A DNA stretch of 64,000 nt. Origin: Bradymonadia bacterium (GTDB lineage Bacteria > Myxococcota_A > Bradymonadia > UBA7976 > UBA1532). A model generated the notes under the pieces. That model was not told the DNA's origin, ran no database searches, and saw only the letters and a program-made list of their open reading frames with translations. The DNA lies in the NCBI GenBank assembly GCA_046290225.1, contig JBKAGE010000070.1:250631-314630 (forward strand), in the 5' to 3' direction. A program made the translations under genes and the position numbers. The stretch's first letter is position 1. Every line of letters starts with the position of its first letter. Shown here piece by piece: positions 32,901-63,001 of this stretch.

Positions 32901-33418
32901 CCGAGGCCCTCGCCGATCTCGAAGTGGCGCTGGGGCTCATGGAGAGCCCCCACCGCGCAGAGCGTGTGCCCACTCTGGGTGCACTCGCCCTCGCCCATAT
33001 GATGCAGGGTGAGCGCCCCCAGGCTCTCGAGCACGCTCGGGCCGCCATCGCTGCGGCGCAGGGCCGTCGCCCCACCTCTCATGCGCTGCTCGAGGGATGC
33101 GCAGCGGTGGTCCAGGTCACCCTGGTGGCCAGGGCCGAAGGGTGGTCGGGCACAGGCCTCGACACGCTCACCAGCAGGGCCCACGCGCTGATGAAGAGTT
33201 ATGCCAGGGCGTTCCCCATCGGCCGGAGCAGATGGTGCCTGCTGCAGGGCGCTCATGCTCATCAGAGCGGGCGTCCACGCAAAGCCGAGCGCCACTGGCG
33301 CCGGGGCCACCGTTTCGCCCTTCAGATGGGTATGCAGCAGGAGGCGAAGTGGCTCAAGGCATGTATTTCAGGCCAACCCCCCGAGATGCGCCATCTGACC
33401 CTGATAACCCCTCCCTGA
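29921..33418 (+). CDS. Ser/Thr protein kinase fused to STAND-type ATPase and TPR-like repeats
   Basis: GHGGGG, VALK, HCDLKPEN, DFG, GTPAYMSPEQ; Walker A GNAGLGKS; VLDDCHWMD; GNPLF; helical C-terminus. Confidence 0.88.
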   Translation: MTRNSSDSASIKRSSAAHSVSTETLTPSIDSAEASDEHRQASVRLQPGTRLGDFEVKQEIGHGGGGRVYLALDTVLERQVALKLLRRDLIDITRVQVFLNEARTTARFHHPHVVMVHSAQLYQNTPYLVLEYLDGGSLRDRLRDGPLPVAEAMSIGLAIASVLGAAHERGILHCDLKPENIVFSGDGVAKVVDFGLTAAIGDPVRRRLVGTPAYMSPEQWRQESLMPASDVWALSVLLYEMFAGHRPYERADLIPLPPVDPHPDIPPALMDLIEEGLSVEISHRPDARVFEATLDGLLAERHLQSVLQEKGQILGRGPEQAKLRRAVERMTLGVGSVTVIEGNAGLGKSLLLTDFVAWAQGRGHRVLTGVAEVLSQGTPYLPWRRVISSLLCDTHMPTVEELKQGLQSRAPQGLQHQLALFNAVIPLGLDEGPDLGAKRASTQGEITHRFLVDLLDALCPEPVIIVLDDCHWMDSSSWRLIRHVAEQLPHLMLVLFTRPMLPAPEEMEALKRLEHMEIISLPPLSPEIIRQLVATRMGNGPGADLVADRVVERADGNPLFAEALIDVVHPSRNLSEDPHTVSQAIRTHIRGLPPVAERVLKQASVIGHRFSRLFLAAVYHTPGELAPGLEALIKNRLLVPTSGDELAFYHAITREAAYALLGPQERAMAHRAVGLKLEMEPEQRWAQLAHHWDQAGDEARALKYADAAGQRALKEGAWAEAQRFFTRALELMPDGTHYAAQRAECHERLCAAAYGLGDLPTVELHARQILDRPEPEGPVSRVLSVLVKGAQLYWRLRHPARQMPAQAATTRKQLARTRAWSHLGGVYWFNNRGLPTLHALIRALETAEPLGGSKEQAAACAELGAGLSFSGFHRIGPWLLKRGRQQAAAYGGPLSVAYGHMFEGIYRTGLGEWPDAQAHIERAQSIYEPVGDLYGWCNCQVVRFWCHLYQGEFKQAETAIKALLKGARRTGNRQHEMWALRSTAITKLRRGDSAEALADLEVALGLMESPHRAERVPTLGALALAHMMQGERPQALEHARAAIAAAQGRRPTSHALLEGCAAVVQVTLVARAEGWSGTGLDTLTSRAHALMKSYARAFPIGRSRWCLLQGAHAHQSGRPRKAERHWRRGHRFALQMGMQQEAKWLKACISGQPPEMRHLTLITPP

Positions 33419-33528
33419 CCATCTGATGACGCATCGCGCAGTGCGTTCACACGGTATGGTGGTGTTGGGGGTTGTCACTCAGTGTGTCCCTATGAAACAC
33501 TCCATCATGTGCATGACATGGGGGTGGT

Positions 33529-36500
33529 ATGAACGGCGAACAGGCTGGCGTGTCGGCAGATGCTCATGTCCCCGTCGAACACAAAGAAAACATCGTCATT
33601 GGCTCTGGGTTTGGTGGGGCAGTCACAGCGCTCCGCCTCACTGAGGCACTGCTCGATGTGTGTTTGCTCGAGCGGGGCCGCCGGTACGAAAAGGGCGACT
33701 TCCCCCGCCCATTCCAAAGAGACAACGAGGGCCTCAGACAGAAGTTCCGACTTGATCGAATGCTCTGGCAGATCGATCACGGCCTGCTCGACAGCCGTAT
33801 GCTCGGTGACATGTCCACGTTGGTCGGCGCCGGATATGGGGGGGGCTCTCTCATCTATGCCAATGTGCACATGCGCCCACCGGCCGATCTCTTCAAGACA
33901 GATGCGTGGAAGCCCACAGGGCTCAACCCCACAGTGCTCGCCCCCTACTTCGACCGTGTGGAGCGTATCCTCGACGTCCAACCGGCCCCTGAAGACCTGC
34001 CTACAGAAGGCGGCGGTCGGCGCACGATCGACAAGACCGATGTGTTTCTCAGTGCAGTGAAGGGGCGCACCGCCTTCAAGCCCAACCTCGCCGTCCGCTT
34101 CGGCGAGCCCACCGCGTCCAATGACTTCAACCGATCACAGGGCACCTGTGTCGGGTGTGGTGGGTGCAACTTTGGCTGCCAGTATCACGCCAAGAACACA
34201 CTCGACCTCAACTACCTCGCCGCAGCAGAAGACAGCGGTCACCTCGAGGTACGCACCCTCGCCGAGGTCCACCGGATCGAGCAGGTCGATCCGAAGAATC
34301 GACCAGAGGACGCTCACCTCGACGCCCGCGCTCGATACCTCGTGGTGTACGTCGATCACCTTGCAGGCGGGGAGATGCGCACGCTGTCAGCACAACGTGT
34401 GTTTATCTGTGCAGGCGCTGTGGGCAGCACGGAGCTGCTCCTGAGATCACAGCGTGCTCAGGCAGGCCGCCTGCCTCACCGACAGCTCACGGGCCTCAGC
34501 GATCGCCTCGGACACAACTTCGCCGGTAACGCCGACGCTCTGGGTCTGGTGGTACAGACAGAGAAGGCTGCCGATCCGAACTTCGGCCCTGTGATCACGG
34601 CCACGACGGTCTACGACGGTCGCGTGCACAGCCGCACCCCCCAGGAGTATCTCCCGAAGAAGGCGCCTGACGCCTTTGAGGACTACCTGTCTCCAGAAGC
34701 GCTCGAGCGACACCAGGCGGGCAAGCCCGCAGGCGAGCCACCCAACTTGGGCGAAGCGCAGCCAGGTGATCCGATCGAGCCTGTGTGGTCACTGCTCCAA
34801 GATGGGGGCTTTCTCCAAGGATACGGCGCCTTCTTCGAACTGCTCGCTCAGGCGTGGTGGGTAGAAGAAGGCAAGGAGGTGAGCATCTGGCAGGAGGGGG
34901 TGAGCGAGCGTCTGGGCCGACGGTTCGAGCACCTCAAGGCGTGGACCGAGAGCGTCGTGCGACGCCGTCCACGGCCAGAGTCACCCCGGGGGCCGATCCG
35001 TCTCGGCGCCCTCACGGACTTTGCCGGGGGCCCTGCTGGTCCCGATCTCGGCTTCGAGCTCTCGGACCACCTCAAGCAGTTCCCCGCTCAGGTGCGCGAT
35101 CAGATCGTGCGCCTCTTCGTGGCCCAGGTCCTCAGCCACACAGGCATTGAAGATTTACTGCCTCTGGGCTTCGCACGAAGCGCCCTCACCCGTCAGCTTT
35201 CTCCAGCGGCTTTGAGCCAGTGGGCTGCCGATCTCGCCCACTTCTGCCTCGACCCCGAGCAGGACCGCGCCGACCGAGCAGTGTTCCTCGCCATGGGCCG
35301 GGATCTCGCACTCGGACGCCTCTGGCTCCACCCTGAAAACCCTTCGTCCCCACCGGCCAAAGGCGCCTGGCGAGCCACACCGCGTCTGCAGCTGACCACA
35401 GATCTCAACCACAACCGCGTGGTCTATCACACGCAAGAGCGGTTGATGCGAGACACCGCCGAAGCCATGGGCGGTCAGCTGCGGGTGAACCCGATGTGGT
35501 CCACCCTGCGCACACCGATCACGGTGCACGCTCAAGGAGGGTGCGTCATGGCGGCCTCACCCAAGGATGGCGTGGTGGATCTCAACGGTCAGGTTCATGG
35601 TCACGAGGATCTCTATGTGCTCGATGGCGCGATTTTCCCCGGGCCTGTGGGCGTGAACCCCTCCCACACCATCGCCGCCATTGCTGAGCACCACATCGAG
35701 CACATCATCCGTGGCATCGGCACGGCACAACGACCAGAGGCGCCGCTGGGCTCCAAGCCGCTCTCTACAACACGTCCAGATCCAGCGAAGTCCCGCCCTG
35801 AGGATTGGACGATCCCCAAACCCTATCCCCTGCTCTCGCCAGAAGCCTCCACCGGGGTGAAGTACCCCGACGTACTCACGGGCTTCATCGCCCAAGGAGG
35901 CAGCGGCTTCGATCACACCAAACCCATGACACCGACGCGGTTGGCGAAGTTCAACCCTGACCCTTTCCGCATCGGCGAGCAGGAGGGGCAAGGCGAGAGC
36001 GATTTCACGCATCGGCTCACCCTGAACCTGACGCTCGAGATCCCCGACATCGATCTCTTCATCGATCCGCGGCCTCGCATCTCGGCGAGCAAGATCAACG
36101 AGCGCGTCGCCCTTCAAGGGATCGCCAACGGTCATGTAGAGCTTCTGTCGTGTAAAACGACCGAAGGCACGCAAACCGCTCTGCAATCAAAGGTCGAAGG
36201 CACCTTCCTCATGCGGGCCCTCGATCCTGTAGATCCACCTCCAAAGCGCACGAGTCTGCCCCTGAGCTTGATCCCCGAGCCCACGGGGGGTCGCCGGACG
36301 ATGGAGTACACCCTCCGCTGGACCTTCCCCAAAGGCGCTCACCCCGACTTCGCCGGGCGCTCGGTCATTTTGAGAGGCCTCAAGACGCTCTACAGCACCC
36401 CAGGGCTCGACCTGATCTCCGACTTCTCCACGCTCTATGCCTCTCTCGAGGAGGTGCCTCCCAGAGGACAAAAGACAATCCCTTCTCCGGCGAAGGGACC

Positions 36501-48906: not shown

Positions 48907-50262
48907 ATGAGAGCAGCCATGAACACACCAACACATGTTCTGGGCCTCGCCTTGAGTCTCTGGGGTTCTACAGCCCTGGCAGGCCCGTCCTCGACATTTG
49001 AGCACACAGATGGATCGCCCATGCTGATGGTGCCCTTCGAGGACTGGGCCGTGAACAGACGGATCGTTTTCAAGGTACCACCGCTGGCTTTGGGGAGCTC
49101 TGGCGCGGTTGTCCTCGAGCCTCAAGGAGAAGGTCAGTATTCGGCCTCGTGTACTTTGCCCGCAGGCCAAGGTGGCCGGGTGATGATCCGCTGGTCCGAC
49201 TTGTCGACCCGGCCACAGTGTCAATCACTCTTCGAACCACAGAGCGATCGCAGCTGGTCGGTACAGACCACCGACGGCCGCGTACTCACCCGGCTGGTGC
49301 GCGCCCTGCCACCGACGATCCCCGGCGATGCATTGTCGATCCACCTGCGACCTGACGGTGGCATGTACTGGGGCGGTGTTGAGGGACGCCGCCCCCGTCT
49401 CACCGTCGATCTGCAGGTCTGTCAGTCTCAAGAGGCATGGGTCGGCCACGGCGCCGCCCTGGAGAAGATCACCCTGGGCGGTTGCCCGATGGAGGATCCC
49501 CGGCTGTTCCTGCCCACACAGGCGAGCCGCACCTTCTTTGCTGGTCGCCCGGGCCGCGCCATCGTCCGCGTCAAGGCGCCGCTGTTCCCTGGGGGCCAGT
49601 GGCGCTCAGTGACCATCAAGTACCTGCCTCCTGGCTCGGTCCCTGTGGCGCAGAGGGCTCCGGCTCCCTCAGTCAAAGGGCCTGACACCTCGGAGATCCT
49701 CGCCAAGACCGTGAAGCCCCTGGCCCCCAAGCTCGCGGAGCCCATCCCCCCGATGGCGCCTGCCATGGCCTACACCACTGGTCCATCTCCCGCGGCAGCG
49801 AAGGAAGTCTACTCTGGTGCCCTTCGCCTCGGGGTGAATTACAGCTACGTGCCCACCGGCGCGCGATATTCCAACCGGCAGATCGGTGGCGAGAACACCG
49901 TTCACGTGGAATCCGACGAGCACCACACCGAGCTTACGGCGGGGTACAGCTGGTTCATCGACGATCTCACCGAAGACGATCGCTTCGTGTGGGGCCGCGG
50001 CATCTACGCCGGGCTGACGTTGCTGTCGACCCAGGAAGGCAACAACCCCTTCCGCGCCGTGCACGCGGGGCTCGACATCCTCGCCCTGGATCCGGGCACG
50101 GCCCTCACCCTCGCCTTCTCGTTCCGCCAGATGTCCACGCTGCGCAATGGCGTCGAGGATGGCGATCCCCTGCCAGAAGGTGCCGACGCACCCACTCGCA
50201 ACCAGATGGGCGTGGGCATCTCCCTCATGCTCAACATCTCACCGCGCCTCATCAGCCGCTGA
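48907..50262 (+). CDS. Hypothetical secreted protein with C-terminal beta-strand-rich (OM-like) domain
   Basis: Signal peptide ending ALA; Pro-rich linker; amphipathic beta-strands at the C-terminus. Start at 48907 or 48919. Confidence 0.6.
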   Translation: MRAAMNTPTHVLGLALSLWGSTALAGPSSTFEHTDGSPMLMVPFEDWAVNRRIVFKVPPLALGSSGAVVLEPQGEGQYSASCTLPAGQGGRVMIRWSDLSTRPQCQSLFEPQSDRSWSVQTTDGRVLTRLVRALPPTIPGDALSIHLRPDGGMYWGGVEGRRPRLTVDLQVCQSQEAWVGHGAALEKITLGGCPMEDPRLFLPTQASRTFFAGRPGRAIVRVKAPLFPGGQWRSVTIKYLPPGSVPVAQRAPAPSVKGPDTSEILAKTVKPLAPKLAEPIPPMAPAMAYTTGPSPAAAKEVYSGALRLGVNYSYVPTGARYSNRQIGGENTVHVESDEHHTELTAGYSWFIDDLTEDDRFVWGRGIYAGLTLLSTQEGNNPFRAVHAGLDILALDPGTALTLAFSFRQMSTLRNGVEDGDPLPEGADAPTRNQMGVGISLMLNISPRLISR

Positions 50263-52194
50263 GATCCGATCCACCTTGAGCGCCCTGAGCTGGTGCTTGA
50301 TCTCGTCGAGCCGCCCCTGAGCCACCCTCCACTTTTCTGCCAGAGCATTCAGTTGGGCCTCAGCCTCTTCTCTGAGACGAGCGAGGTGATGAGGTCCATC
50401 TCTCAACCGACCCTCGAGGCGTGATCGCGCCACGGCTCTCGCCCGCTCGGTGAGCGTCTCGGTCACCGCTCGGCGATCGAAACGGACGCCCTTCTCTTGC
50501 GTCTTTCTCCACTGGAGCAGGCGGCCGATCAGCTGCTCACCGATGTTGCCGACACCTTCAAGGGTGTCGCGACGTACGTCGGCGGCGGTCTCCACACCTG
50601 CATGACGCAGACGTTTGAGGCGGCGCTGATTCAGGGCAGGCAATTTGAGCTGGTCGAGGCGGAATGTACTCAGATGTTGCTCGAGGGCCTGCTGCCGTGC
50701 GGCCATCACTTCATCTTTGATGGCCTGTGGATCGACCTGAATCCCTGCAAACCCACCCTCAAGATCGGCCAACAACCTCTGTCTGACTCCAAACCACTGC
50801 TGGAGGATGTCGACCCACTGTTTCTTGAAGATCTGGATGTGTTTGTGAAGTTGAAGCGCCTCGGTACTGAGCTCGGTGACAAGGCTTCGTCGCGCTCGGA
50901 CTGCCTGCCACCACCACCCCATCGCCACGAGGCCTCCGATCCCGCCGCCGAGGGCGAGGGCCAGGCGTTCAGTGCCCAGGCCGGCGGCCACCGCCCCTGC
51001 TGATACTCCAGCACAGAGAAGCGGACCAAGGAGGACGCCTCCACCCGTCGAGGCAGAGTGCGAGGGTGAATCGAACACCGGGCGCTCTGGCAGCGCTGGC
51101 AAAGCCTCGAGCTGGCGCTTGATGCTCGCCGCATCAAAGGGCGCCTGGGTCAGGCTGGGGGTGAACAGGTCGTGACCCAGCTGATCTTGGAGCGTGCACC
51201 ACGGACAACCCCAGGCGGCTTGAGGGTAGATGTGGCTCTCATCTCGACTGCAACTGCGCAGACCCTCCTGATGCAGGTGGCTGAGGTGCATCCTCCACTG
51301 TTGTGCTGACGGGCGCCCGGCGGACTGAGCCGCAAAGGCCTGCTCGAAGCACCTGGCGATCTCCTGGGGGACGAGGCTCAGTGCTGGTGTATGGGGTGGC
51401 CGATCTATCCCTCGCGCGCGCGCCTGAGATCCATAAGCGAAGAGCGCAGCCTTGATCGCCTCGGGGATAGACGGTGCCGTACCACCATCGAGAGCCACCC
51501 CTGCATGGGGATGGCGGCCGAGGAACAACACGTGAAAAATGAGCACCGCCAACCCGAAGGCATCTGTGTCGGGGGTCCTCAGCTGATCCACGAGTGACTT
51601 GCCCGAAAGCTCGGGAGGGAGAAACTCCGGCGCCCCCACTCGACACAGCCACCGCTGCCCCTCTGAGGTGATTTGAAAGCTGTCGGTGTCGATGAGTTTG
51701 AGCTTCACCTCACCGTCGTGGATGCCCACCAATACATTGTTCGGGTTTACGTCGCCGACGCAGTGGCCCCGTTGATGGAGCACGTCGAAGGCCTCTGCCA
51801 GGGCTGCGGAGACGTGCACCAGAGACGCCCAGGTGGCTTGGGGGAACTCCCTGCGTCGATCCTTCGGGCTGTAGAGCAGGTGTACCGGCTTGAGGCCCTC
51901 CACTCGGGGCATCAGCAAGCCCACCACCACACCACTCGGCGTGCTCAACACGTCGAGCGGCCAGGCGCTCACCGACATCAGCCCTGCATCTCGCAGGCTG
52001 AGCATGGCCCTGAGTTTGCCGATCTGCTCTTCCGCAGGCGGGCGGTGATAGAGCTTCGCCGCCAGGGTCTCGTGATCCCGCACGCTGTAAACGCTGCCCT
52101 CGCCCCCCTGGCCCAGGCGAGGGCCCAGGATCACCCGGGCGCCGGTGCTGCTGAGGAGCGGCCCTCGGTGGCCGGCAGGTGCCGGAGGACTCAT
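50239..52194 (-). CDS. TerY-P triad Ser/Thr kinase (YegI-like) with transmembrane segment and HhH-like C-terminus
   Basis: LGQGGEG, AAKLYH, AWP, VGDVNPNN, LIDTDSFQ, PPEL, GRHP, CPWC, GVETAADV...VGNIGE. Confidence 0.88.
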   Translation of the reverse strand: MSPPAPAGHRGPLLSSTGARVILGPRLGQGGEGSVYSVRDHETLAAKLYHRPPAEEQIGKLRAMLSLRDAGLMSVSAWPLDVLSTPSGVVVGLLMPRVEGLKPVHLLYSPKDRRREFPQATWASLVHVSAALAEAFDVLHQRGHCVGDVNPNNVLVGIHDGEVKLKLIDTDSFQITSEGQRWLCRVGAPEFLPPELSGKSLVDQLRTPDTDAFGLAVLIFHVLFLGRHPHAGVALDGGTAPSIPEAIKAALFAYGSQARARGIDRPPHTPALSLVPQEIARCFEQAFAAQSAGRPSAQQWRMHLSHLHQEGLRSCSRDESHIYPQAAWGCPWCTLQDQLGHDLFTPSLTQAPFDAASIKRQLEALPALPERPVFDSPSHSASTGGGVLLGPLLCAGVSAGAVAAGLGTERLALALGGGIGGLVAMGWWWQAVRARRSLVTELSTEALQLHKHIQIFKKQWVDILQQWFGVRQRLLADLEGGFAGIQVDPQAIKDEVMAARQQALEQHLSTFRLDQLKLPALNQRRLKRLRHAGVETAADVRRDTLEGVGNIGEQLIGRLLQWRKTQEKGVRFDRRAVTETLTERARAVARSRLEGRLRDGPHHLARLREEAEAQLNALAEKWRVAQGRLDEIKHQLRALKVDRISAADEAR

Positions 52195-52976
52195 GCCTGC
52201 GTGCCCCTTCGAGAGGCCAGGATCAGGCTCTTGTCGTCATCTGTGCGCTCGTTCACCGATGCAGAAGACAGGAAGCTCAACAGCGGCGCCTCGAGATCGC
52301 TCCCGGGCTCCGCTTGCTCCACAAAGCCGAACATCTGGTCGAAGAACGGGCCGTGGGCGGTGCGGGTTTCATAGTGCAGCACCAGATGCTGCAGGCCATC
52401 CGTGAAGGCGGCGAAGGCCTCGATGGGCCCCTGCACCAGGGCCCATTCCAGATGTAGCTCGGCATCTGAGGCCGTGGCGAACCAGGTCTCGTTGGCAAAC
52501 TCGCCGCGGGCTGGCCAGAACACCCAGTCGTACCCACCTCGGTGGCCCGCGCTGGGGATCACCATGGCCCCATCTCCGATCTGGAAGAACACCCCATATC
52601 GATCGTCGATGAGGGCCACCATCACCGTGCAGGCATACGCTCTGGGCACCGCACCTGCGGCATCGGCCCGTGACTGAATGGCGGTCTGAAACGCACTGAG
52701 CCAGTTCAGAGCCCAGGCGCGATCGAGCTCGGCAGCACCTCCGCCGCCCTCGACCAGCGCGCCCATGGCGTCGAGGGCCATGTCGCACGCGAGGCGGGCA
52801 CCCTCTGCACCCAGCTCCGCGGTGCCAGCACCGTCGGCCATGGCGCACAGGAGGCAGGGGCCATGAGGGCCCTCCACCACCCGCACTTCACAGGCGTCCT
52901 GGCAAGGGGTGTCATCTTTGAGGTGGGCCGTCCCCGGTGCCGATGCCGCGACATGTGTCCACGGGCTCGGGCTCAC
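52191..52976 (-). CDS. TerY-P triad PP2C phosphatase (YegK-like)
   Basis: GTAH....[34 protein letters not shown]. Confidence 0.92.
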
Positions 52977-53638
52977 ACCACCACCGTGGCCCAGCCGTCC
53001 GGGGCCGCCGGGTTTTCGAGGGCCAGCTGATCACCCGGGCGAGATCTCGACACTGAAGACAGAGAACTCGACAGCCAGGTGAACAGGCGTTCGAAGGCCA
53101 GCCCCTTGAGAGCCACCGGCTCTCGCACCGAGAGGCTCTTCAAGATCGACACGTCAGCGCCCTCTACCCCGACGGAGAAGAACATGAAGGCCCGCTCGGC
53201 CTCGCCGCGCTTCACCAGATCAGCAGCCTCGGCCCACTCGTCGGTGGGGGCGCCGTCGGTGATCAAGAAGACCCAGGGCCGGTAGTAGGCGATGCCGTTG
53301 GCCCGGTACGCCTCCTTGCGCAAGCGGAGCATCTCGAGGCCCACGGTGATCGCCTTGCCCATGGGGGTGCCCCCGGTGGTCACCAGAGGCGGCGGGTCGA
53401 AGTCATAGGCGGGCACGAAGTCGGCGATCTGCTGCACAGGGCCAAAGGTGACCATGGCCACCTCCACCCGCTTGGTGGCGAGGCGATCTGCCTGAAGAGA
53501 CTGTTGAAAGGTCTTGAGGCCGGCGTTGAGCTGCTCGATGGGCGCCCCCTCCATGGAGTGGGAGGTGTCGAGCAACAGCAGGCAGGGGCACCGGGGCTCC
53601 GGGTTCTCGGCAAATTCCGGATTGAGGATCAACGACAA
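52973..53638 (-). CDS. terY: TerY vWA domain protein (YegL-like)
   Basis: [46 protein letters not shown], FxWLSSS. Confidence 0.92.
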
Positions 53639-53833
53639 CGATCTCTCCAGTCGAGCTCAAGGCTGCACGTTGAGACTATAGCCTGCTCCACTGTGACGAG
53701 CTTCATTTTTCCCCTGGGCCCGTTTCTGGCCTGCTCTGGCCCCTCTTCAAGGGCGTCCGTCATGACCCAACGCTTATATATCCTCCATATGCGCCGATTT
53801 CTGTAGGGCGTGCAGACATCAGAGGAGAACCCC

Positions 53834-54376
53834 ATGCGCCACGTCGGACTCATCGCCCTCGGCTTCGTCACAGCGGGCCTCAGCGCCTCAGCAGCCTTTG
53901 CTGGCAGCCCGGCTCAGGTGTACGCCCGGTACGCCGCTTCGAATAGCCCGTACAGCCAGGCCGTACATGCCGACGCTGCCGCAGAGGCCCTCGCCACCGA
54001 GGCAGATCCGCATGCCGTAGGCACCCCCGGCACCCGCTGGAACCCCACGGAGCGCGTGGCCCCGGCGACGGGGGTGGTGGACTGCGCCACCCACAGCCTC
54101 ATCGATCACCCTCTCGGACCGCATGTCGCCCGCGATCTCATCACCGAAGCCTGTCAAAAGATGGGCGAGGGCGATCTGGTGGCTCTCGATCACACCGGGC
54201 GCTGGCCCGACAGCGGCGCCCAGGCTGTGCAGACCCTCGTGGTGGCCGTCAAAGTCCCGGGCAAGAATCAGGTCGTGCTGTCGGCGCAGCCCTGGCGTGA
54301 CGCCGGAGGGGCTGCGGCAGAGCTCAACGCCATGTTCAAGGGGCAGCGGCCGGAGAGGGCTCGGCGAAAGAAGTAG
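53834..54376 (+). CDS. Hypothetical secreted protein
   Basis: GAGGAG RBS; signal peptide ending AFA. Confidence 0.6.
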   Translation: MRHVGLIALGFVTAGLSASAAFAGSPAQVYARYAASNSPYSQAVHADAAAEALATEADPHAVGTPGTRWNPTERVAPATGVVDCATHSLIDHPLGPHVARDLITEACQKMGEGDLVALDHTGRWPDSGAQAVQTLVVAVKVPGKNQVVLSAQPWRDAGGAAAELNAMFKGQRPERARRKK

Positions 54377-54384
54377 AGGTCAGC

Positions 54385-55686
54385 TCACTCGTAGCAGCTG
54401 TAATCGTAGGTGGTGGTCAGGACCTCGCCGGCGCCCTCTCGAGGCGTGCGGACCACCTTGCTGATGTTGCCGAACTCGTCGTAGGTGTACGACAAGGTGA
54501 AGTCGAGCAGCTCTTCGGGCATCTCGCCACCGTAGACCACGCTGTACCGCTCCAGGCTCTGGACCAGCGGCGCCTCCCCCTCGACATAGTTGAAGATCCA
54601 GTAGGCATCGAGCAGATCCTGCTGCTCCCCCTCACCGGTGAGGCGACGGCGCAAGATGCGGTTGGTCCGGCTGCGACGGCCCTTGGCGTCGAAGGAGAAT
54701 CGCCAGATCTCGTCGGTGTCGAGCGGGTCGAGGGCGTCGACGGTCATCTCGGTGAGTCGGCTGTTGGCGTCGTAGACGAACGACGTCGTCCACTGATCGT
54801 CACCGCGGACCACCTGACGCCGGGTCATACGGCCCGCGCTGTCGAATTCGTAGTCCCGGGTCTCGCCCTTGTTAAACGAGGTGCCGTTCACCGTGAGACG
54901 CTGGCCCCCAGGATCAAGCTCGTAGGTGAAGGTCTCGAAGGTGGCTCCGTCGATGCCGTCCTCGAAGCCTTCCACCCGCAACCGCAGGTTCCCGTTGGTG
55001 TACCGGGCGGTGTAGGTCGACGCGGTGTACTCGCCGATGTCGAGACGGTTGAGCTCGATGCGGGTGATGTTCCCGAAATCGTTGTAGCTGTAGACGCTGT
55101 CGGAGATGAGCTCCCCATCACGATCACCGGTCCAGTACGACTGGGTGCGCTGGGTGAGGCGGCTGGTCTCGTCGAAGGTGTAGATCGTCCGCTGGGGGCG
55201 GAAGCCGTCGGTCTCCACCACACAAGGCAACGGGTAGTTGTTGTTCACCACTGGCCCGTCGATGGGATAGAACTGGCGGAACTCAGACTCCGAGACCCGG
55301 CTCAGACACTCACAGGCTGTGTAGCTGTTCCCCGGCAGGCAGGTCCGGAAGCCCGGGGTGTCGAAGCGGGGCAGGTTGCCCTCGGCGTCACGGCAGGCGC
55401 ACAGCTGTCGGGAGCCTGGATCACACTCTTCAGGGCCCTCTTCTTCACACACGCACTCACCGAACTGCCCAGCGTTGCTGCACACCTGAGTACCGTCGGC
55501 CACCATGTCGGGTGAGTCGGGATCAGGGCAGGTGCACGCTTGCTCCTCGCCAGCGGTACACTCCGGGGCTGGCGCCATGTCGGGCACATCAGCGTCGACG
55601 CTGTCACCGCCACCTCCGTCGTCACAGCCAGAGATCGCCGCAGCCAGGACCGCTGCGCAGCCCACCATCCAAAACCTCGTGTTCAT
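54385..55686 (-). CDS. Lipoprotein with Cys-rich repeats and YD/RHS-like beta repeats
   Basis: Lipobox ISGC; CTAGEEQACTC and CDPGSRQLCAC repeats; YTFDETSR, YSYNDFGN, YEFDSAGR, YDANSR, YTYDEFGN. Confidence 0.75.
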   Translation of the reverse strand: MNTRFWMVGCAAVLAAAISGCDDGGGGDSVDADVPDMAPAPECTAGEEQACTCPDPDSPDMVADGTQVCSNAGQFGECVCEEEGPEECDPGSRQLCACRDAEGNLPRFDTPGFRTCLPGNSYTACECLSRVSESEFRQFYPIDGPVVNNNYPLPCVVETDGFRPQRTIYTFDETSRLTQRTQSYWTGDRDGELISDSVYSYNDFGNITRIELNRLDIGEYTASTYTARYTNGNLRLRVEGFEDGIDGATFETFTYELDPGGQRLTVNGTSFNKGETRDYEFDSAGRMTRRQVVRGDDQWTTSFVYDANSRLTEMTVDALDPLDTDEIWRFSFDAKGRRSRTNRILRRRLTGEGEQQDLLDAYWIFNYVEGEAPLVQSLERYSVVYGGEMPEELLDFTLSYTYDEFGNISKVVRTPREGAGEVLTTTYDYSCYE

Positions 55687-55866
55687 GCTCACCTCATCTC
55701 CACGCATCTGACCACCGCGACTCTGTGCAGGTCGCGCCACGGATGACCATCGGCGGTCTTCTCGATTGGGGGAGGGTACAGGGAATGGCCGATGTGGTGA
55801 AACAGGTAGAGTCGTCTACCTTGACAATGTGCCCTCGATCAGACTCCATCCGTCGCGCCGAGAGAG

Positions 55867-56751: not shown

Positions 56752-59160
56752 TTGATGAGCCTCGCGGCCCCTGCCCTCGTCACCTGCCTCGCCGACGCCG
56801 AGCAGCCCCTCGTCGAGGCCTTGCAGGGGATCACGCTCGTCGATGATCAGTCTCCGGAGGCCATCGCCCGGGCTCTGATCCATCTCACTGTCCTCTGCCG
56901 ATTTGCATCAGAAGGCACGACGCTCGCCACGTTGCCCTGCGCCCACCCCGCAGTCAGCGACATGTGCGACGCGCTGAGCATGCTCGCCGACCACGGCCCT
57001 GTGGCGTCTCAGCTCCGAGCCTTGAGACACACCCTGGCCCGACACCCCAAATGGCCCGCGCTCTCTTTCGAAGAGACCACCCACTTGCTGCCGCTGTGCA
57101 TCCGCAGACGCAATCCGGATCGAGCCTCGGCCCTCGGCCTCTTTACCACCCCAGCACCTGTGGCCCGAGCCATGATGTCCCTCGTAGCCGATCTCGGCGG
57201 CCTCGAGGGAGATCGGCCCTTTCTCGACCCTGCCTCGGGCACCGGCGCGTTCCCCATCGCCTTGCTCGAAGTCGCCCGCCAACGGCTGGGCTCGCGCTGG
57301 TCTACCCAGGCCCCCCATCTGGTGACCCGGATACATGGCCTCGAACTCGACTGGGTGATGTGGTTGGTGGGGCACGTCAGAGTGGCGATCTGGCTGCACA
57401 ACCACGGCGTCTCTGTCACGCCCACGCTCAGGCTTCCTCTCGAGCGCGGTGACGGCCTCACAGCCCCATGGCCTGAAGCCCTTCAGCTCGTGATGGGCAA
57501 CCCGCCCTACGCGCGTTTGCCCACGGGTGATCCTCGACGGCGCTGGATCACCCCCTTTGCCCAGGACAGCCGCGCCCAGGGTGCTGGAGGCCACGTCAAG
57601 AGCCTCTACAACCTTTATGTCGCGTTCTGGGGCCGCGCACACGCCGCAGTGACTCAGGGTCAGATCTGTCTCGTGACCCCTTCGGCCTGGCTCAACGGCC
57701 CTGGCTTCATCGGCATGCGGACGACCCTCTCCACCCCATCGGGCGACCTCTACGCCCTCGACCTGCGCGGTGATCAATTCGGAGGCCGGCGCACCGCCAA
57801 CCTGCTCAAAGTGCGTCCCCCCATCGCCATTGGCCTCAGCCATCGAAGAGAAGGTGCTCAGGCCACATCGGCTCGACTCTTCACGCTGCCGAGCGATCTC
57901 GACGCCCGACTACAATGGCTCGAAGGTCAGCCCTCGATCGGAGACATCCCCTGGCGATCGATGTCATCGCCCCTCGAAGCCCCCGTCCACGAGACTTCCC
58001 GTGGCTCAACTGAGCTGAAGGCGCCCCTGCTCACAGACATTTTCACGTGGCAGACCTCAGGGGTGCAATTCAAGCGTACCTGGCCTGTCGCTCACCGACC
58101 CTCGCTCCTGGTCGAGCGCTGGCGCATGTTGTTGAGCCACCCTGATCTCGGCGCGGCGCTGAAGTTGACCCGGGACCGCAACCCGACGCGCCCTGGCCGG
58201 CGAATCGTGGACCACGCCCGACTCGATGCACTTCACCCCGACATCGCCGAGCCGATACGCGCAGCCCTGGCGCAGGGTTGGGATCCTGAGGCGCCGCTCG
58301 GCAGCTTGAACCCCGATGCGCCCCACCCGCCCATCGTGCCTTATGGCTGGCGTGCCTTCGATGATCAGTGGTGTTTCCTCGACGATCGGCTCTGTGACTG
58401 CCCTCGTCGACCGCTCTGGAGACAGCACACCCCGCAGCAGCGCTACCTCGTCTCTCTGCTGACCAAACCCTTGGGCCGTGGACCCTCGGTCCTGCCTGGC
58501 ATGCTGGTCCCCGACATGGATCATTTCTGCAATCGAGGCGGCCGAGACATCGTGCCTCTCTGGCGAGATGATGGCGAAGGGGGCCAAGCCCCCAACATCG
58601 CCCCCGATCTTCTAAACACTCTATCGGCTACATGGAACAGGGCGGTCACCCCAGAGGATCTCTACAACTACACCCTGGCGCTGCTCGCTCACCCCAGTCA
58701 TGGCCGCGTGCTCGATGGCGCGCTTGTAGATCCGGGGCCGCGTGTGCCCCTCACTGCGGACGGCCCCCTTGCCGTCGAGGTGATACAACTGGGCCAGCAA
58801 CTCTTTGAAGTCTTTAAGAATTCACCTCCGGACCGAACGCTCTGCTGGTCCTCTCCACCTCAGCCTGAAGCCCCCCCGAGCTATGCCCTCAGAGACAACG
58901 CGATTTTTCTTTGTGGAGGTCGCTTCGAATTACCTCGGCCAGAAGTCGTCGAGCGTATCTCCGGCTTCGATCCGATCCGCAGCTGGGTGAAGCGGCGGGT
59001 TTCGAGAGGCAAAAAAGGGGTGATCCAATCCTCGGAAGAATTTTTTTTATCAGGCGATGAGATTTTTTTGGGGGTGGCCCGTCTGGTCTCTCGCTTATCG
59101 ACTTGGGCGTCGTTTTGGCCCGCTCAAGCAGCTTTTTTAGGAAAAGCGCTTAAGTTTTGA
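56752..59160 (+). CDS. N6-adenine DNA methyltransferase with type ISP (LlaBIII-like) C-terminal specificity domain; no nuclease or helicase seen
   Basis: FTTP, motif I DPASGTGAF, motif IV MGNPPY, NLYVAFW; C-terminal YGWRAFDDQW, PRRPLW, PLWRD, PRVPL, ISGFDPIRSW. Confidence 0.8.
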   Translation: MMSLAAPALVTCLADAEQPLVEALQGITLVDDQSPEAIARALIHLTVLCRFASEGTTLATLPCAHPAVSDMCDALSMLADHGPVASQLRALRHTLARHPKWPALSFEETTHLLPLCIRRRNPDRASALGLFTTPAPVARAMMSLVADLGGLEGDRPFLDPASGTGAFPIALLEVARQRLGSRWSTQAPHLVTRIHGLELDWVMWLVGHVRVAIWLHNHGVSVTPTLRLPLERGDGLTAPWPEALQLVMGNPPYARLPTGDPRRRWITPFAQDSRAQGAGGHVKSLYNLYVAFWGRAHAAVTQGQICLVTPSAWLNGPGFIGMRTTLSTPSGDLYALDLRGDQFGGRRTANLLKVRPPIAIGLSHRREGAQATSARLFTLPSDLDARLQWLEGQPSIGDIPWRSMSSPLEAPVHETSRGSTELKAPLLTDIFTWQTSGVQFKRTWPVAHRPSLLVERWRMLLSHPDLGAALKLTRDRNPTRPGRRIVDHARLDALHPDIAEPIRAALAQGWDPEAPLGSLNPDAPHPPIVPYGWRAFDDQWCFLDDRLCDCPRRPLWRQHTPQQRYLVSLLTKPLGRGPSVLPGMLVPDMDHFCNRGGRDIVPLWRDDGEGGQAPNIAPDLLNTLSATWNRAVTPEDLYNYTLALLAHPSHGRVLDGALVDPGPRVPLTADGPLAVEVIQLGQQLFEVFKNSPPDRTLCWSSPPQPEAPPSYALRDNAIFLCGGRFELPRPEVVERISGFDPIRSWVKRRVSRGKKGVIQSSEEFFLSGDEIFLGVARLVSRLSTWASFWPAQAAFLGKALKF

Positions 59161-59380
59161 GGGGTGGGTGTTTGAGCACCCATATCGCACCTTTCCATTC
59201 CGGAACATAAATATGTGCAAAGGCCCGCTTGAATGTTGCCGTTGCAAGGCCCGAAACGGGCTACACTGAACAAACGCTCACCTATGCACGGGTGCCGATT
59301 TGCGTAGAAATGAATGGGTGATAGTGGGACGGAAGTGGGCTACTTCCGGCAGGGTAATTCGGAATTTGAGGAGAACGGGC

Positions 59381-62300
59381 ATGGGCAAGATGCACGATCA
59401 GAAGATTCAGAAGAACCGCAAGTTCATCAAGGGTTTGGGCGTTGTGGCTGCACTGTCGGTCACAGCTCTGGTCAACGGCACGGACAACGTGCCCCTTGAG
59501 AAAAACTCTTCAACCCCTCAGCAGAATGCACCTCAGGTGGCCCGGCACGTCGTCGCCGCGCCCACTCTGCATCAGGGTTCGGCCGTCGTGGGCAACCACA
59601 CCAACGTGCCTGTTTCTTATGCGTCGCATTTGCAGGTCGATGCTGCAGCCCCTCATATCGCCATTACGGCACGGGGTGAAGTGGCCTTGAGCGAAATCAT
59701 CATTCGGACTGAAAAAAAGTTCGATGAAGATGCTGCGGCCCGCATCGCCGAGCGCTTTGGTGCCCAAGTGGTGGCCTCGCCCATGGCCCACTTCGCCCAT
59801 GTCAAGCTCCCCGAAGGTCAGGATCTCGCCGAGGCCATGACCTTCATCAACGCCCTCGACGGCGTGAGCCCCTCGTACAACGCCATCATGCGGGCCACTG
59901 GCCTCGGCTCCAGCTCCCGCGATGCCCAGATCCAAGCCCAGCTGGACTACGCCCCCATCGACCCCATCGCCGCCGCCGCGCTTGCCCCGCTGCAGTGGCA
60001 GATGGACGACAGCGCCTTCGGTCCTGGCAGCTGGCGCAGCACCCTCGCCCGCAGCTCCAGCGACGGCGTCACCGTGGCCATCCTCGACAGTGGGGTCAGC
60101 ATCGCCCCCTCCATCGAGTGCGCCGAGACGGTGGCCCCCTACGACTTCGTCAACGACGATGCTGATCCTTCTGATGATCACGGCCACGGCACCCACATCG
60201 CCACCCTCGTGGCCGCCAACCCCGAGTGTGGTGCGGTGTTCCAGGGCTACGCGCCCAACGTGACCCTCATGCCCGTGAAGGTGCTCGACAAGCAGCTCGC
60301 CGGCACCGAGTACGCCCTCGCCTCCGGCATCCTGCACGCTGTGGAGCACGGGGCCGACGTCATCAACATGAGCCTGTCGTTCAGCAAGGGCTACCAGCCT
60401 GGGGCCATGCTCCAGGCCGCCATTCAGAAGGCCGCCGATGCTGGCGTGGTCATGATCGGCTCCACCGGCAACGCCGGCATCGAGTTCGTGGGCTGGCCCG
60501 CCGCCTCCCCCCGGGTCATCGCCGTGGGCGCCTACGACGCTCAGGGCATGTCCGGTGAGGCTTCAGCCCGCACCGACTACTCCAACTTCGGCGCCGCCGT
60601 CGACGTGCTCGCCCCTGGTGGCACCCTCAAGGATCGCAACGAAGACGGCCTGCCCGACGCCATGCTCGGCGAGGCCCCCGTTCTCGGCTCTGACGGCGAG
60701 TTCCAGTTCTACCTCTCCGCCGGCACCTCACAGGCCGCCGCTGCGGTGACAGGTCTCGCCGCGCACCTCGTGGCTCAGGGTCACGATCCCGCGGTGGTGC
60801 CCTCTATCATCTCCGCCAGCGCCGAGCGCCCCGAGGGTCACGATCACGAGGCGGGCTCCGGCCTGCTGAGCCCCGGTCACGCCCTGGCCTTCGCTGATCG
60901 CGCCGACTTCCCCGGCAACGAGGCCCTCGAGGCCCGGTTCCAGGTGAACACCGTCATGGCCCTCACCGAGGGCGCCGAGGGTCCCGAGGCCACCGTGAAG
61001 GTGGCGGTGCGCATGAGTCACCCCGAGAAGGGCTCCATCACCCTCGCCGACGCCGGCATCGACTCCGCCGTGAAGGTGAGCGGTCACTGGTCCGGCGCCG
61101 TCTCCGGCACCGACAGCTGCGAGGTGCAGCCCGGTGAGTCCAGCTGCGAGTTCACCCTCGGCCTCGGCAAGACCGTCGCAGGCACCCTCGTGGGCTTCGA
61201 GGTCGACACCGTCACCGCCATGGGCGACGGCTCCGGCATCCTCGACGACTGGGGCCGCCCCGCCGAGAGCTTCTACGGGCTCAAGGGCGAGTGGGCCGAC
61301 ACCCTCGTGAACCACGACACGCACCACGTCTTCTTCGAGATGAACCAGGAGAACGCCGGAGAGACCTTCGGCGACGCCACCATCATCTCCAGCATGCTCT
61401 ACCGCCCCTTGGGTGCTTCCGGTGTGATGCCTCCTTCGGCCTGGTTGCTCGACGGCGGCTTCTTCAACGCGCTGCACGTGGGCGAGGGTGAAGCCACTGG
61501 CGACGGCCTCGGCTCCAGCAGCCACATCATGGGTCTCGGCTCCAGCAGCCTGGTGTTCCAGTTCAACTCCACCCTGCTCAGCCCCCAGCTCGCAGTGATC
61601 GAGGGCAACGGCCTCGGCTCAAGCAGCCTCGACTTCGAGTCCGTCATGGGCCTCGGCTCCAGCAGCCTGATCTTCACCGGCGCCAACACCATGGGGCACC
61701 TGCTCGCTTACGGGAACGGTCTCGGCTCCAGCAGCCTCGACTTCGAGTCCGTCATGGGCCTCGGCTCCAGCAGCAATGTCTTCAACCAGTACCTCGGCCT
61801 CTACACTGTGCAGGTGGCCTACGGGAACGGTCTCGGCTCCAGCAGCTACATCGGCGAGGACAACTTCCTCACCGGTGCGCACTCCAACGTGCTCGATCAG
61901 ATGGGTGGGCTCTCCAAGTTCTACGGCTCGGTGACCGCCATCGCCCAGGGCAACGGCCTCGGCTCCAGCAGCCTCGATCATGAAGAGGTCATGGGCCTCG
62001 GCTCCAGCAGCCTCTCCGCGATCATTTACAACCTCTACGCCGGCTTCAACAGCTTCAACGCTCAGGGCAACGGCCTCGGCTCCAGCAGCCACGACGCCGA
62101 CAACTTCATGGGTCTCGGCCCCAGCACGCACTTCGAGCGCCTGTTCCGTCGCGTGTTCGCCCCCCAGCAGGCCACCGGGAACGGCCTCGGCTCCAGCAGC
62201 CGCGACTTCGAGGCGGTCATGGGCCTCGGCTCCAGCAGCAACATCTTCAAGCTGATGATGCTCACCCTCTCGGTTCAGGCTGAGGGCAACGGCCTCGGCT

Positions 62301-63001
62301 CCAGCAGCATCAACTGGTCCCTGGTGAGCCCCGAGAGCGGCCCCGACATGACCCCGGGCCTGATCTTCATGGGCCTCGGCTCCAGCAGCAACGTCATGCA
62401 GGGCAACGGCCTCGGCTCCAGCAGCATCAACTGGTCCTTCTTTGCCGGCCTCGACAGCGGCAGCAACTTCGCTGACCTCTCCGCGGCCATGGGCCTCGGC
62501 TCCAGCAGCAACGTCATGCAGGGCAATGGCCTCGGCTCCAGCAGCCTCGACTTCTCGATGTACATGGGCCTCGGCTCCAGCAGCCACATCCTCAACTTCG
62601 CTGAGGTCATGGGCCTGGGCTCCAGCAGCAACAACATGCAGGGCAACGGCCTCGGCTCCAGCAGCATCGACTGGACCATCTTCGCCGGCCTCGGCAGCAG
62701 CAGCAACGTGGTGGATCTGTCTTCGGTGATGGGCCTGGGCTCCAGCAGCCACGACATGCAGGGCAACGGCCTCGGCTCCAGCAGCCTCGATTTCTCGGCC
62801 GTGATGGGTCTCGGCTCCAGCAGCCTCGACTTCTCCGCTGTGATGGGCCTGGGCTCCAGCAGCTACGGCATGCAGGGCAACGGTCTTGGCTCCAGCAGCC
62901 TCGATCACGAAGAGGTCATGGGCCTCGGCTCCAGCAGCCAGCCCATCGGCCACATCACCCGCTCCCTGTTCCCCGTGAACGTGCAGCAGTTCGGGCTCTG
63001 A
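59381..63001 (+). CDS. Secreted S8 (subtilisin-like) serine protease with prodomain, Ig-like domain and GLGSSS-repeat tail
   Basis: GAGGAG RBS before ATG 59381; N-terminal hydrophobic helix; catalytic VAILDSG (D), HGHGTHIA (H), STGN (oxyanion N), AGTSQAA (S). Confidence 0.92.
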   Translation: MGKMHDQKIQKNRKFIKGLGVVAALSVTALVNGTDNVPLEKNSSTPQQNAPQVARHVVAAPTLHQGSAVVGNHTNVPVSYASHLQVDAAAPHIAITARGEVALSEIIIRTEKKFDEDAAARIAERFGAQVVASPMAHFAHVKLPEGQDLAEAMTFINALDGVSPSYNAIMRATGLGSSSRDAQIQAQLDYAPIDPIAAAALAPLQWQMDDSAFGPGSWRSTLARSSSDGVTVAILDSGVSIAPSIECAETVAPYDFVNDDADPSDDHGHGTHIATLVAANPECGAVFQGYAPNVTLMPVKVLDKQLAGTEYALASGILHAVEHGADVINMSLSFSKGYQPGAMLQAAIQKAADAGVVMIGSTGNAGIEFVGWPAASPRVIAVGAYDAQGMSGEASARTDYSNFGAAVDVLAPGGTLKDRNEDGLPDAMLGEAPVLGSDGEFQFYLSAGTSQAAAAVTGLAAHLVAQGHDPAVVPSIISASAERPEGHDHEAGSGLLSPGHALAFADRADFPGNEALEARFQVNTVMALTEGAEGPEATVKVAVRMSHPEKGSITLADAGIDSAVKVSGHWSGAVSGTDSCEVQPGESSCEFTLGLGKTVAGTLVGFEVDTVTAMGDGSGILDDWGRPAESFYGLKGEWADTLVNHDTHHVFFEMNQENAGETFGDATIISSMLYRPLGASGVMPPSAWLLDGGFFNALHVGEGEATGDGLGSSSHIMGLGSSSLVFQFNSTLLSPQLAVIEGNGLGSSSLDFESVMGLGSSSLIFTGANTMGHLLAYGNGLGSSSLDFESVMGLGSSSNVFNQYLGLYTVQVAYGNGLGSSSYIGEDNFLTGAHSNVLDQMGGLSKFYGSVTAIAQGNGLGSSSLDHEEVMGLGSSSLSAIIYNLYAGFNSFNAQGNGLGSSSHDADNFMGLGPSTHFERLFRRVFAPQQATGNGLGSSSRDFEAVMGLGSSSNIFKLMMLTLSVQAEGNGLGSSSINWSLVSPESGPDMTPGLIFMGLGSSSNVMQGNGLGSSSINWSFFAGLDSGSNFADLSAAMGLGSSSNVMQGNGLGSSSLDFSMYMGLGSSSHILNFAEVMGLGSSSNNMQGNGLGSSSIDWTIFAGLGSSSNVVDLSSVMGLGSSSHDMQGNGLGSSSLDFSAVMGLGSSSLDFSAVMGLGSSSYGMQGNGLGSSSLDHEEVMGLGSSSQPIGHITRSLFPVNVQQFGL
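61505..62938 (+). repeat. In-frame array of 27 GGCCTCGGCTCCAGCAGC-type (GLGSSS) repeats with variable spacers
   Basis: 27 exact GLGSSS plus two variants (GLGPST, GLDSGS) counted in the translation; all spacers are multiples of 3 nt. Confidence 0.95.

Follow-up and report, generated by a model that had tools for sequence, protein, structure and literature searches.

A Myxococcota subtilase with 27 copies of GLGSSS in its tail: an extreme member of a repeat-tailed S8 family whose motif may be read by the enzyme itself

The window examined here is a stretch of 64,000 nucleotides from a Bradymonadia bacterium (contig JBKAGE010000070.1, positions 250,631 to 314,630), and towards its end lies a gene for a pre-pro-subtilase, at 59381-63001, whose protein we call P0001 and which carries the label C70 in our tree. 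What sets this protein apart is a C-terminal tail of about 500 residues in which one hexapeptide, GLGSSS, recurs exactly 27 times between variable spacers, and we find that P0001 is an extreme, recently amplified outlier of a repeat-tailed S8 family. That family is specific to Myxococcota, is recognised by its C-terminal array, in which copies of a short Gly/Ser(/Pro) motif take turns with unrelated spacers, and is apparently undescribed. As to what the array does, we tentatively rank first the idea that P0001 is an exported pro-subtilase that recognises and trims its own tail, the motif being read by its own cleft; second, and somewhat less probable, comes an uncleaved structural or binding module. 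The gene is laid out as follows, with positions in the protein given in amino acids (aa).

59381..63001, plus strand: coding sequence of the repeat-tailed pre-pro-subtilase, with ATG at 59381 and the stop at 63001; 1206 aa plus stop.
59381..59479, plus strand: signal-peptide-like N-terminal segment, aa 1-33, a basic stretch and then hydrophobic GLGVVAALSVTALV, as judged from the sequence.
59657..59893, plus strand: probable prodomain of the fervidolysin/I9 type, aa 93-171, from Pfam PF22148 near its cut-off and from the AlphaFold fold.
59900..59917, plus strand: a twenty-eighth exact GLGSSS, aa 174-179, in the linker right behind the prodomain (IMRAT-GLGSSS-RDAQ).
60062..60775, plus strand: Peptidase S8 catalytic domain, aa 228-465, from Pfam, with D236, H269, N364 and S450 intact.
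60935..61480, plus strand: middle region, aa 519-700; first a beta-sandwich (Ig/MG-like), then a small subdomain of mixed type; conserved family-wide.
61505..62938, plus strand: motif array, aa 709-1186, with 27 exact GLGSSS, GLGPST and GLDSGS; spacers of 3-36 aa.
62939..62998, plus strand: the C-terminal 20 residues past the final motif, QPIGHITRSLFPVNVQQFGL, unlike the C-termini of the paralogues.

The 28 exact copies of GLGSSS in P0001 comprise the 27 in the tail and the one at aa 174-179. An earlier sequence-only reading of this DNA had reported the 27 tail copies with variable spacers, which is correct, and all of the spacer peptides it quoted are present; the copy at the prodomain junction was absent from its account. 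The register of the tail is kept by two degenerate copies (GLGPST and GLDSGS), giving 29 motif positions and 28 spacers, of which 25 are distinct in sequence and 17 are no longer than 9 aa, most measuring 6-9 aa, while the final 180 aa of the array are built of 40-aa (120-nt) units with three motifs apiece. In composition the tail is 21% Ser and 17% Gly, with 32 acidic and 7 basic residues. GLGSSS is preceded by GN in 12 copies and by Met in 13, F, W or M occupies the third position past it in 19 of 28, and the spacers fall into recurrent classes: [LR]D[FH]xxVM, xxMQGN, I[ND]WxxFA and a long hydrophobic x[VI]F...GN. Across the whole genome (8.58 Mb, 64.4% GC), a six-frame scan of 17.2 million residues found GLGSSS in only seven long open reading frames (ORFs) and as singletons in nine other, mostly short, frames, and this rarity puts 27 copies within 500 aa far beyond chance. 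The 18-nt motif DNA has no further occurrence in the genome outside the subtilase gene.

The enzyme part of P0001 is itself ordinary. PF00082 (Peptidase_S8) matches aa 228-465 with an E value of 1.1e-35 and 123.9 bits against a cut-off of 21.8, and the catalytic Asp, His and Ser, in that order, together with the oxyanion Asn (D236, H269, N364 and S450), are invariant columns in a 121-sequence family alignment; Pfam and the alignment thus bear out the intact subtilisin D/H/N/S claimed by the sequence-only reading. In front of it, PF22148 scores 19.6 bits on aa 105-162, slightly below its cut-off of 21, and clears that cut-off in five of eight homologues scanned; an AlphaFold model made with the family alignment gives aa 93-171 a beta-alpha-beta fold at a predicted confidence (pLDDT) of 87-95. 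Prodomain, catalytic domain and middle region are mostly above pLDDT 85 in this model. The Ig-like domain of the earlier reading corresponds to a confident beta-sandwich at aa ~519-613, and the equivalent of the middle domain in a homologue matches the macroglobulin (MG) domains of complement C5/C4 at a middling Z of 8.3-8.4. The first 33 residues, with pLDDT below 50, appear to resemble a Sec signal peptide, judging from their sequence. An alternative start would be the TTG at 59300, and a 462-aa ORF opposite the array is a mirror of the GC-rich repeat.

When the enzyme and middle domain (aa 200-705) are used as the query, 287 relatives appear at E<=1e-10, the top matches with 40-42% identity over 93-98% of the query; our family figures rest on the best 120 of these at least 287 relatives, which with P0001 makes 121 proteins. 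Most source names among the members read 'S8 family serine peptidase [Myxococcota bacterium]', and the full-length relatives that sit in named genome records are mostly from metagenome-assembled genomes with Myxococcota or Deltaproteobacteria labels, a few bearing others. Cultured myxobacteria match through the catalytic domain only. A C-terminal array with at least three copies of a motif, G-x-G-[LIMF]-x-[ST]-S-[PS], whose form is constant in any one protein, is present in 103 of the 121 proteins and one with at least four copies in 72, the usual number being 3-8 and the maximum outside P0001 being 8, compared with 27 in P0001 (28 with the junction copy). Four conserved repeats stand out in the family consensus, and the spacing most often seen is 20 aa. 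Copies in one and the same protein share a pairwise identity of 88% in the 10-aa motif and of 14% in the 10 aa that follow it, and the motif differs between proteins, so that the test proposed at the outset, of a motif fixed in each protein while the spacers vary, gave a positive answer. Typical family motifs are GSGLASSPLGF, GTGLSSSPLG, GSGISTSPFG, GSGFGSSTVG, GGGIATSPLT and GxGMASSSL, and GNGLGSSSLDF of P0001 aligns position by position with the family form GTGLSSSPLGF.

In a tree of the enzyme region, motif variants track enzyme phylogeny. The P0001 gene belongs to the clade (C82,(C70,(C1,(P0005,P0006)))), which lies in a basal group mostly lacking the Pro of the majority 'SSP', and its genome has three further paralogues: C1 with three copies of GNGLGSSS, C82 with three of G[TN]GLGSS[ST] and C67 with two of GNGLGLAS. 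In P0005/P0006 all three copies are altered together relative to C1 (GNG[LM]GASS as against GNGLGSSS), and one other genome, G005, holds two paralogues with different motifs, GLGASS and GLMASG. We did consider a reader specific to the organism, and dropped it, as the tree shows C1, C70 and C82 to retain an ancestral GLGSSS. The motif acts like a short linear element that is under selection and moves along with the protease.

The family offers some further observations. Within the motif, an Ile in G-x-G-I goes with a Phe three residues past the Ser-Pro (SPFG) in 10 of 16 cases, and a Leu does so in 3 of 78, these being raw counts without phylogenetic correction; the pairing suggests, from sequence, that both side chains might share a common pocket or pack together. 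P0103, a partial protein of 779 aa, ends in 'GDGFASSSL' repeated back to back without spacers, in at least five copies that run off the record, and is a second, independent type of runaway motif amplification. In two other members, C75 of G005 (which is P0008) and C121 of G008, at loci L005 and L008, the spacers are rich in aromatics and Gly (for example, LTWNWYGMWGWNFG) or there is Trp in the motif (GLWGSG three times).

The P0001 tail, by comparison, stands on its own. None of 8000 scored candidates of 663-2111 aa is a sequence relative of aa 700-1206, a phmmer search of the tail against 1.84 billion protein representatives returned only two weak, unrelated repeat proteins, a search of the ESM Atlas with the tail gave no usable match, and in the genomes of 60 relatives the tail was not found save for one weak match (E 8.5e-5).

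Is such an array real? It is of course conceivable that it is an assembly expansion of a short repeat, or else a functionless runaway product of slippage, and there are reasons for asking: the gene lies 1.6 kb from the contig end, the motif DNA is highly uniform, and in the four public marine-metagenome runs with matching contigs none of those contigs crosses the whole array. In addition, one 202-nt contig (marine run X1) joins 61621 to 61730, and the 108 nt it skips are exactly one double cassette, LDFESVM plus a long spacer, so that either the copy number of the array is polymorphic or the short-read assembly has collapsed it. Against this, the frame is open over 1206 codons and holds 25 distinct spacers, which collapsed or expanded assembly would not invent; independent short contigs from the four runs match pieces of the gene, the tail included, mostly at 95-99% identity; the ratio of nonsynonymous to synonymous differences per site (pN/pS) in the spacers is about 0.3; and the same architecture recurs in the paralogues and in about 100 homologues. 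We regard an artefact or a decay product as very improbable.

The history of the array can be read from its codons. An identical 18-mer encodes 17 of the 28 motif copies, the motif's Ser codons are TCC-AGC-AGC in 26-28 of 28 copies while the rest of the gene mixes six Ser codons, and same-codon use among the motif copies is 0.87, compared with an expected 0.38. Tandem Repeats Finder reports periods of 120 and 240 nt at 77-84% identity. In aligned units pS is 0.14 in motif codons; in spacer codons (62 of them) pS is 0.43 and pN 0.11, a pN/pS of 0.27, and for the period-aligned pair U1 against U3 the ratio is 0.31, the unit pairs other than U1/U3 having been chosen by similarity, which biases pN downward. 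A pair of LDFSAVM cassettes encodes identical peptides with three synonymous and no nonsynonymous differences. It follows that the array arose by fairly recent amplification, with the motif DNA as its seed, and its spacers are constrained nonetheless. Elsewhere, the three motif copies in C1, and the six in the lipoproteins described below, use varied synonymous codons, and across the family the codon sharing among motif copies is near random expectation in 5 of 12 analysable genes and above it in the other 7; these differing synonymous codons in C1, the lipoproteins and the five genes mean that the motif is selected at the level of protein.

What, then, reads the motif? The junction copy at aa 174-179 sits three residues past the last prodomain strand (aa 162-171), and the junction of prodomain and catalytic domain is where subtilases autoprocess. 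Indeed, a distant homologue from a neighbouring tree branch, P0112, has its own tail motif, GIGTSP(I), in the same junction position, and these two copies suggest that the motif is read by the cleft of the enzyme itself. An exact match between a protein's own tail 6-mer and its own junction occurs in 2 of 85 proteins, compared with 6 of 6722 mismatched motif/junction pairs, and in none of the 85 does the exact 6-mer fall in the enzyme body, which is 5.8-fold longer than the junction. At the four paralogue loci there is no neighbour gene in common, and the protease is therefore the sole candidate reader that is always inherited with the tail.

Three paralogous giant lipoproteins encoded in the same genome (G000), with frames of 1333-2001 aa, also carry the hexapeptide, each time as a doublet.

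Contig C41, about 31300-36080, minus strand: giant lipoprotein, locus among L017 and L018.
Contig C54, 33833-37832 and 37835-43838, plus strand: giant lipoproteins, loci among L017 and L018.

All three are predicted lipoproteins with a lipobox (LLAC/LVGC/LFAC), and the C41 protein, the one that was scanned, combines a Big_5 domain with numerous Cys-rich metal-binding motifs of the MopE type and with RCC1 repeats. The doublet stands in a block, 'LPLDARAGLGSSSRDPAxPRxGLGSSS', some 150 aa from the N-terminus, which is the best-conserved part of a region elsewhere 56-70% identical. Its flank 'GLGSSSRD' is the junction context of P0001, and the other flank, 'GLGSSSRVF', is how the C82 tail begins. 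The N-terminal 300 aa of these lipoproteins were found in this genome only, of 113 searched in its class.

A motif shared by two unrelated classes of exported protein in one genome, with a Ser-rich core (SSS, SSP, TSP) and GNGLG-type motifs in all four paralogues there, might also be read by some other factor, such as a machinery for sorting or attachment or an enzyme that modifies Ser, by O-glycosylation or otherwise; S8 tails and lipoproteins would then share it as sites of modification or attachment. None of the four paralogue loci has a candidate enzyme linked to it, however, the differing motifs of the G005 paralogues (GLGASS and GLMASG) fit one common reader poorly, and the junction position would go unexplained; we consider a separate factor quite improbable. 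Covariation between motif and enzyme columns added little to the question, with 37 sister pairs yielding 1-11 informative pairs per position: the top two columns for the hydrophobic motif position lie in the SLSF..GY.PS cleft segment, in only two of four pairs, and a cross-tabulation had no pattern. Likewise, a complex prediction of the S8 and middle domains with a 59-aa piece of tail, run without controls, scored 0.00, which is no evidence either way.

Taken together, the mechanism we favour, tentatively, would run as follows. The array grew recently from a few copies to 27, through recombination on the motif DNA of 18 nt, while most spacers shrank to 6-9 residues, and what resulted is a Ser/Gly-rich tail of 480 aa that is predicted to be flexible. 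The motif would be a short linear recognition element for the substrate cleft of this protease and of its three paralogues. After export, a first cut may fall at the copy behind the prodomain, and the tail may then be trimmed at its repeated copies, shedding peptides of 12-24 residues, so that the tail would serve as a consumable substrate tethered in cis, a pro-region at the C-terminus by which activity is delayed or tuned or the enzyme is set free. The same enzymes might clip the three giant lipoproteins at their GLGSSS doublets. The protease as reader, cleavage itself, the place of the scissile bond and the role of the peptides are all things that we infer. In this mechanism an accessible tail is expected, and the AlphaFold model predicts one: aa 705-1196 have pLDDT 24-39 and essentially no secondary structure, the linker with the junction motif being low as well. 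Most of the tail had no aligned rows in the AlphaFold input, which makes this weak evidence of disorder.

A number of observations weigh against self-trimming, and they deserve to be set out together. The low pLDDT of the tail may come only from its missing aligned relatives. In P0063, a typical member of the family, repeats 1-4 (aa 621-710) are modelled at pLDDT 86-94 with one beta-strand per spacer, later repeats falling to 44-73, so that in the model the family module looks folded and not like an open substrate. The junction match is sporadic, the 2 of 85 proteins mentioned above, and a link between tail motif and junction across the family was rejected, with a matched fraction of 0.37 in 98 proteins where controls gave 0.35-0.36. 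Searches of three other genomes found the local motif in S8 genes only: in G005 a degenerate GLGASS-type DNA pattern had 23 matches outside the S8 gene and 40 in the control, in G113 GLASSPLG is in three S8 paralogues only, and in G114 it is in a single S8 gene only. Most family members have a Pro directly behind G-L-x-S-S, and a Pro at P1' would block subtilisin-type cleavage in a PatA-like register; it is speculative that replacement of Pro by Ser in the P0001 clade turned a binding loop into a substrate. The uniformity of the motif in the P0001 gene owes as much to recent amplification as to selection. Finally, orthologues share 0.41-0.83 identity in the spacers, 0.54-0.86 in the body and 0.75-0.98 in the motif, and by sequence this conservation of spacers resembles that of an ordinary domain.

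Several of these points speak for the reading that we rank second, in which the array is never cut and serves as a module for structure, anchoring or binding that keeps the protease on a surface, on a matrix polymer or on its substrate; in P0001 it would have been hyper-expanded into a long and flexible stalk of high avidity, which remains attached and releases no defined peptides. C-terminal repeat modules of secreted proteases usually bind something, the first four repeats of P0063 are confidently modelled, the family has a modal period of 20 aa and a stable 3-8 copies, the spacers are conserved by position in orthologues and under purifying selection in the P0001 gene, and no further carriers of the motif appeared in the three other genomes. 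What such a module does not account for is the exact motif at the prodomain junction in two lineages, or the isolated doublets in a linker of unrelated lipoproteins; moreover, the 17 spacers of at most 9 aa are too short for a 20-aa unit, the tail is modelled without structure, and a stretch of 8-11 loop residues kept nearly perfectly despite randomised codons is unusual for a purely structural turn. This module is a serious possibility to which we give somewhat less weight than to self-trimming. A left-handed beta-helix or hexapeptide solenoid was rejected, given spacings of 12, 13 and 15 with no hexad register and an AlphaFold tail, in a low-confidence model, without strands.

The sequence-only reading had proposed a chain that is at once protease and substrate. 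The junction copies, the lipoprotein doublets and a tail predicted to be unstructured are consistent with this part of it, while the folded look of the P0063 module and the junction match in 2 of 85 proteins run counter to it. It had also named what would speak against it, namely a folded repeat domain with spacers conserved in homologues, and at the level of the family something of the kind was found, in repeats 1-4 of P0063 and in the spacers of orthologues.

A further step would be that the spacer peptides are themselves the product, signals, antimicrobials or matrix peptides released from a fused protease-precursor, in the manner of a multicore RiPP (a peptide synthesised ribosomally and modified post-translationally) or of a repeat precursor processed by Kex2, with enzyme and precursor joined in one chain. 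All the points for self-cleavage count here too, and so do the recurrent, selected classes of spacer, the identical peptides kept despite synonymous changes, the basic, amphipathic-looking spacers of paralogue C82 and the precedents of the fused burpitide pathway (PMC11253845) and of Kex2-processed repeat proteins, or KEPs (PMC9769878 and PMC6339444). On the other side, no tailoring enzyme, transporter, immunity gene or receptor lies nearby and the paralogue loci have no common neighbour, membership among the PatA/PatG proteases fails, the tail has no relatives elsewhere in which a conserved 'product' could be seen, and the ancestral family module looks like a folded domain. We hold a peptide library to be unlikely. 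The boldest form of the argument, in which a single chain of subtilase plus its own multi-cassette substrate cuts at the junction and at the 27 tail copies, releases selected extracellular peptides of 12-24 residues and sheds the three giant lipoproteins at their doublets, strikes us as doubtful.

How does P0001 compare with systems already known? Classical pro-subtilases (fervidolysin 1R6V, Tk-SP 3AFG and NisP 4MZD) share with it the S8 fold and the order of prodomain (a probable one in P0001), catalytic domain and beta-sandwich, but the motif array has no counterpart in any solved relative that was found. With the P0063 model as query, fold searches gave subtilases (thermitase at Z 40.2, fervidolysin at 35.5, Tk-SP at 35) and middling MG matches, with no structure aligned to the tail, and the protease domain of PatA (3ZXX, Z 31.6) is no closer than generic subtilisins. 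According to PMC10885120, NisP autocleaves its own C-terminal portion, and PatA-like S8 proteases cleave after G(L/V)E(A/P)S. The cyanobactin system of PatA/PatG and PatE is alike in having an S8 protease and a constant site flanking variable cassettes, and G(L/V)E(A/P)S resembles G-L-G-S-S; it differs in that enzyme and array form one chain in P0001, with no heterocyclase, DUF or separate precursor gene nearby. As a PatA/PatG protease P0001 was rejected, scoring 57 bits on TIGR03895 against a cut-off of 421.05 and having no heterocyclase, PatE-like precursor or PatB/C nearby, and as a mycosin of the type VII secretion system (T7SS) it was rejected too, with 143.3 bits on TIGR03921 against 278.75. 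Of the multicore RiPP/cyanobactin architecture first suggested for the tail, then, the repeated sites flanking 25 distinct spacers stand, and the PatA model (57 bits of the 421 needed) and the missing tailoring, export and immunity genes count against it.

Eukaryotes provide the other likenesses. In KEPs and other multi-copy precursors, many peptide cores are flanked by a constant site and cut by the S8 protease kexin (according to PMC9769878, PMC6339444 and PMC7329392), while these proteins, and neuropeptide and pheromone precursors with them, differ in being eukaryotic, in using dibasic sites, in keeping protease and substrate separate and in having no homology to P0001. The best non-self match of the tail among the 1.84 billion proteins is P0002, a repeat precursor of 952 aa with 'YDPALKYMGLGKR' units, and this match is probably a chance similarity around 'MGLG'. 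For what it is worth, the P0002 units, 'YDPALKYMGLGK[KR]', have the look of a eukaryotic multi-copy precursor of amidated neuropeptides, a neat functional analogue. Fused burpitide precursors of plants place an enzyme domain and repeated core peptides in one polypeptide (PMC11253845); there the enzyme is a copper-dependent cyclase and not a protease, the host is a plant, and there is no sequence relation to P0001.

As for novelty, a tail of 27 identical hexapeptides with a junction copy was not found in Pfam, NCBIfam, PDB sequences or open-access papers. 'GLGSSS' occurs in a single, unrelated plant proteomics paper among open-access papers, where five strings of the family motif gave unrelated matches only and repeat tails of myxobacterial subtilisins gave one unrelated preprint; among the RiPP and subtilisin papers listed, no title or abstract showed a protease-precursor fusion.

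The neighbours of the gene have nothing to do with the making of peptides: a Type ISP-like methyltransferase, a PurU-like formyltransferase, a TPR protein, an RHS protein and a group of kinase, PP2C and VWA genes. Within about 10 kb upstream and the 1 kb to the contig end there is no tailoring enzyme, transporter, immunity gene, receptor or separate precursor. The ORF directly upstream (56752-59160, plus strand, 802 aa) shows N6-adenine methylase/Eco57I motifs together with a C-terminal specificity domain of the Type ISP kind, with no nuclease-helicase part seen, and may be a solitary or truncated Type ISP-like restriction-modification component. Further off, at 50239-55740 on the minus strand, are a Ser/Thr protein kinase (651 aa), a PP2C phosphatase, a VWA-domain protein and an RHS-repeat protein (451 aa), which showed no link to the subtilase in the tests made.

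What does this mean for the family? There is a clade of several hundred environmental, mostly marine, Myxococcota subtilases whose array has no account in domain libraries, solved structures or open-access papers, and P0001 is its most informative member because its hexapeptide recurs at the site of its own maturation and also in three further exported proteins. Should the motif not be the enzyme's cleavage site, the family would still define a new surface or binding module. If it is, this would be a new bacterial route to peptides or to the timing of a protease, and it would furnish a ready-made pair of specific protease and tag. And if the single-chain reading is true, P0001 would be a bacterial counterpart of the Kex2-processed repeat precursors, which would suggest that several hundred repeat-tailed S8 proteins of Myxococcota might be protease-substrate fusions.

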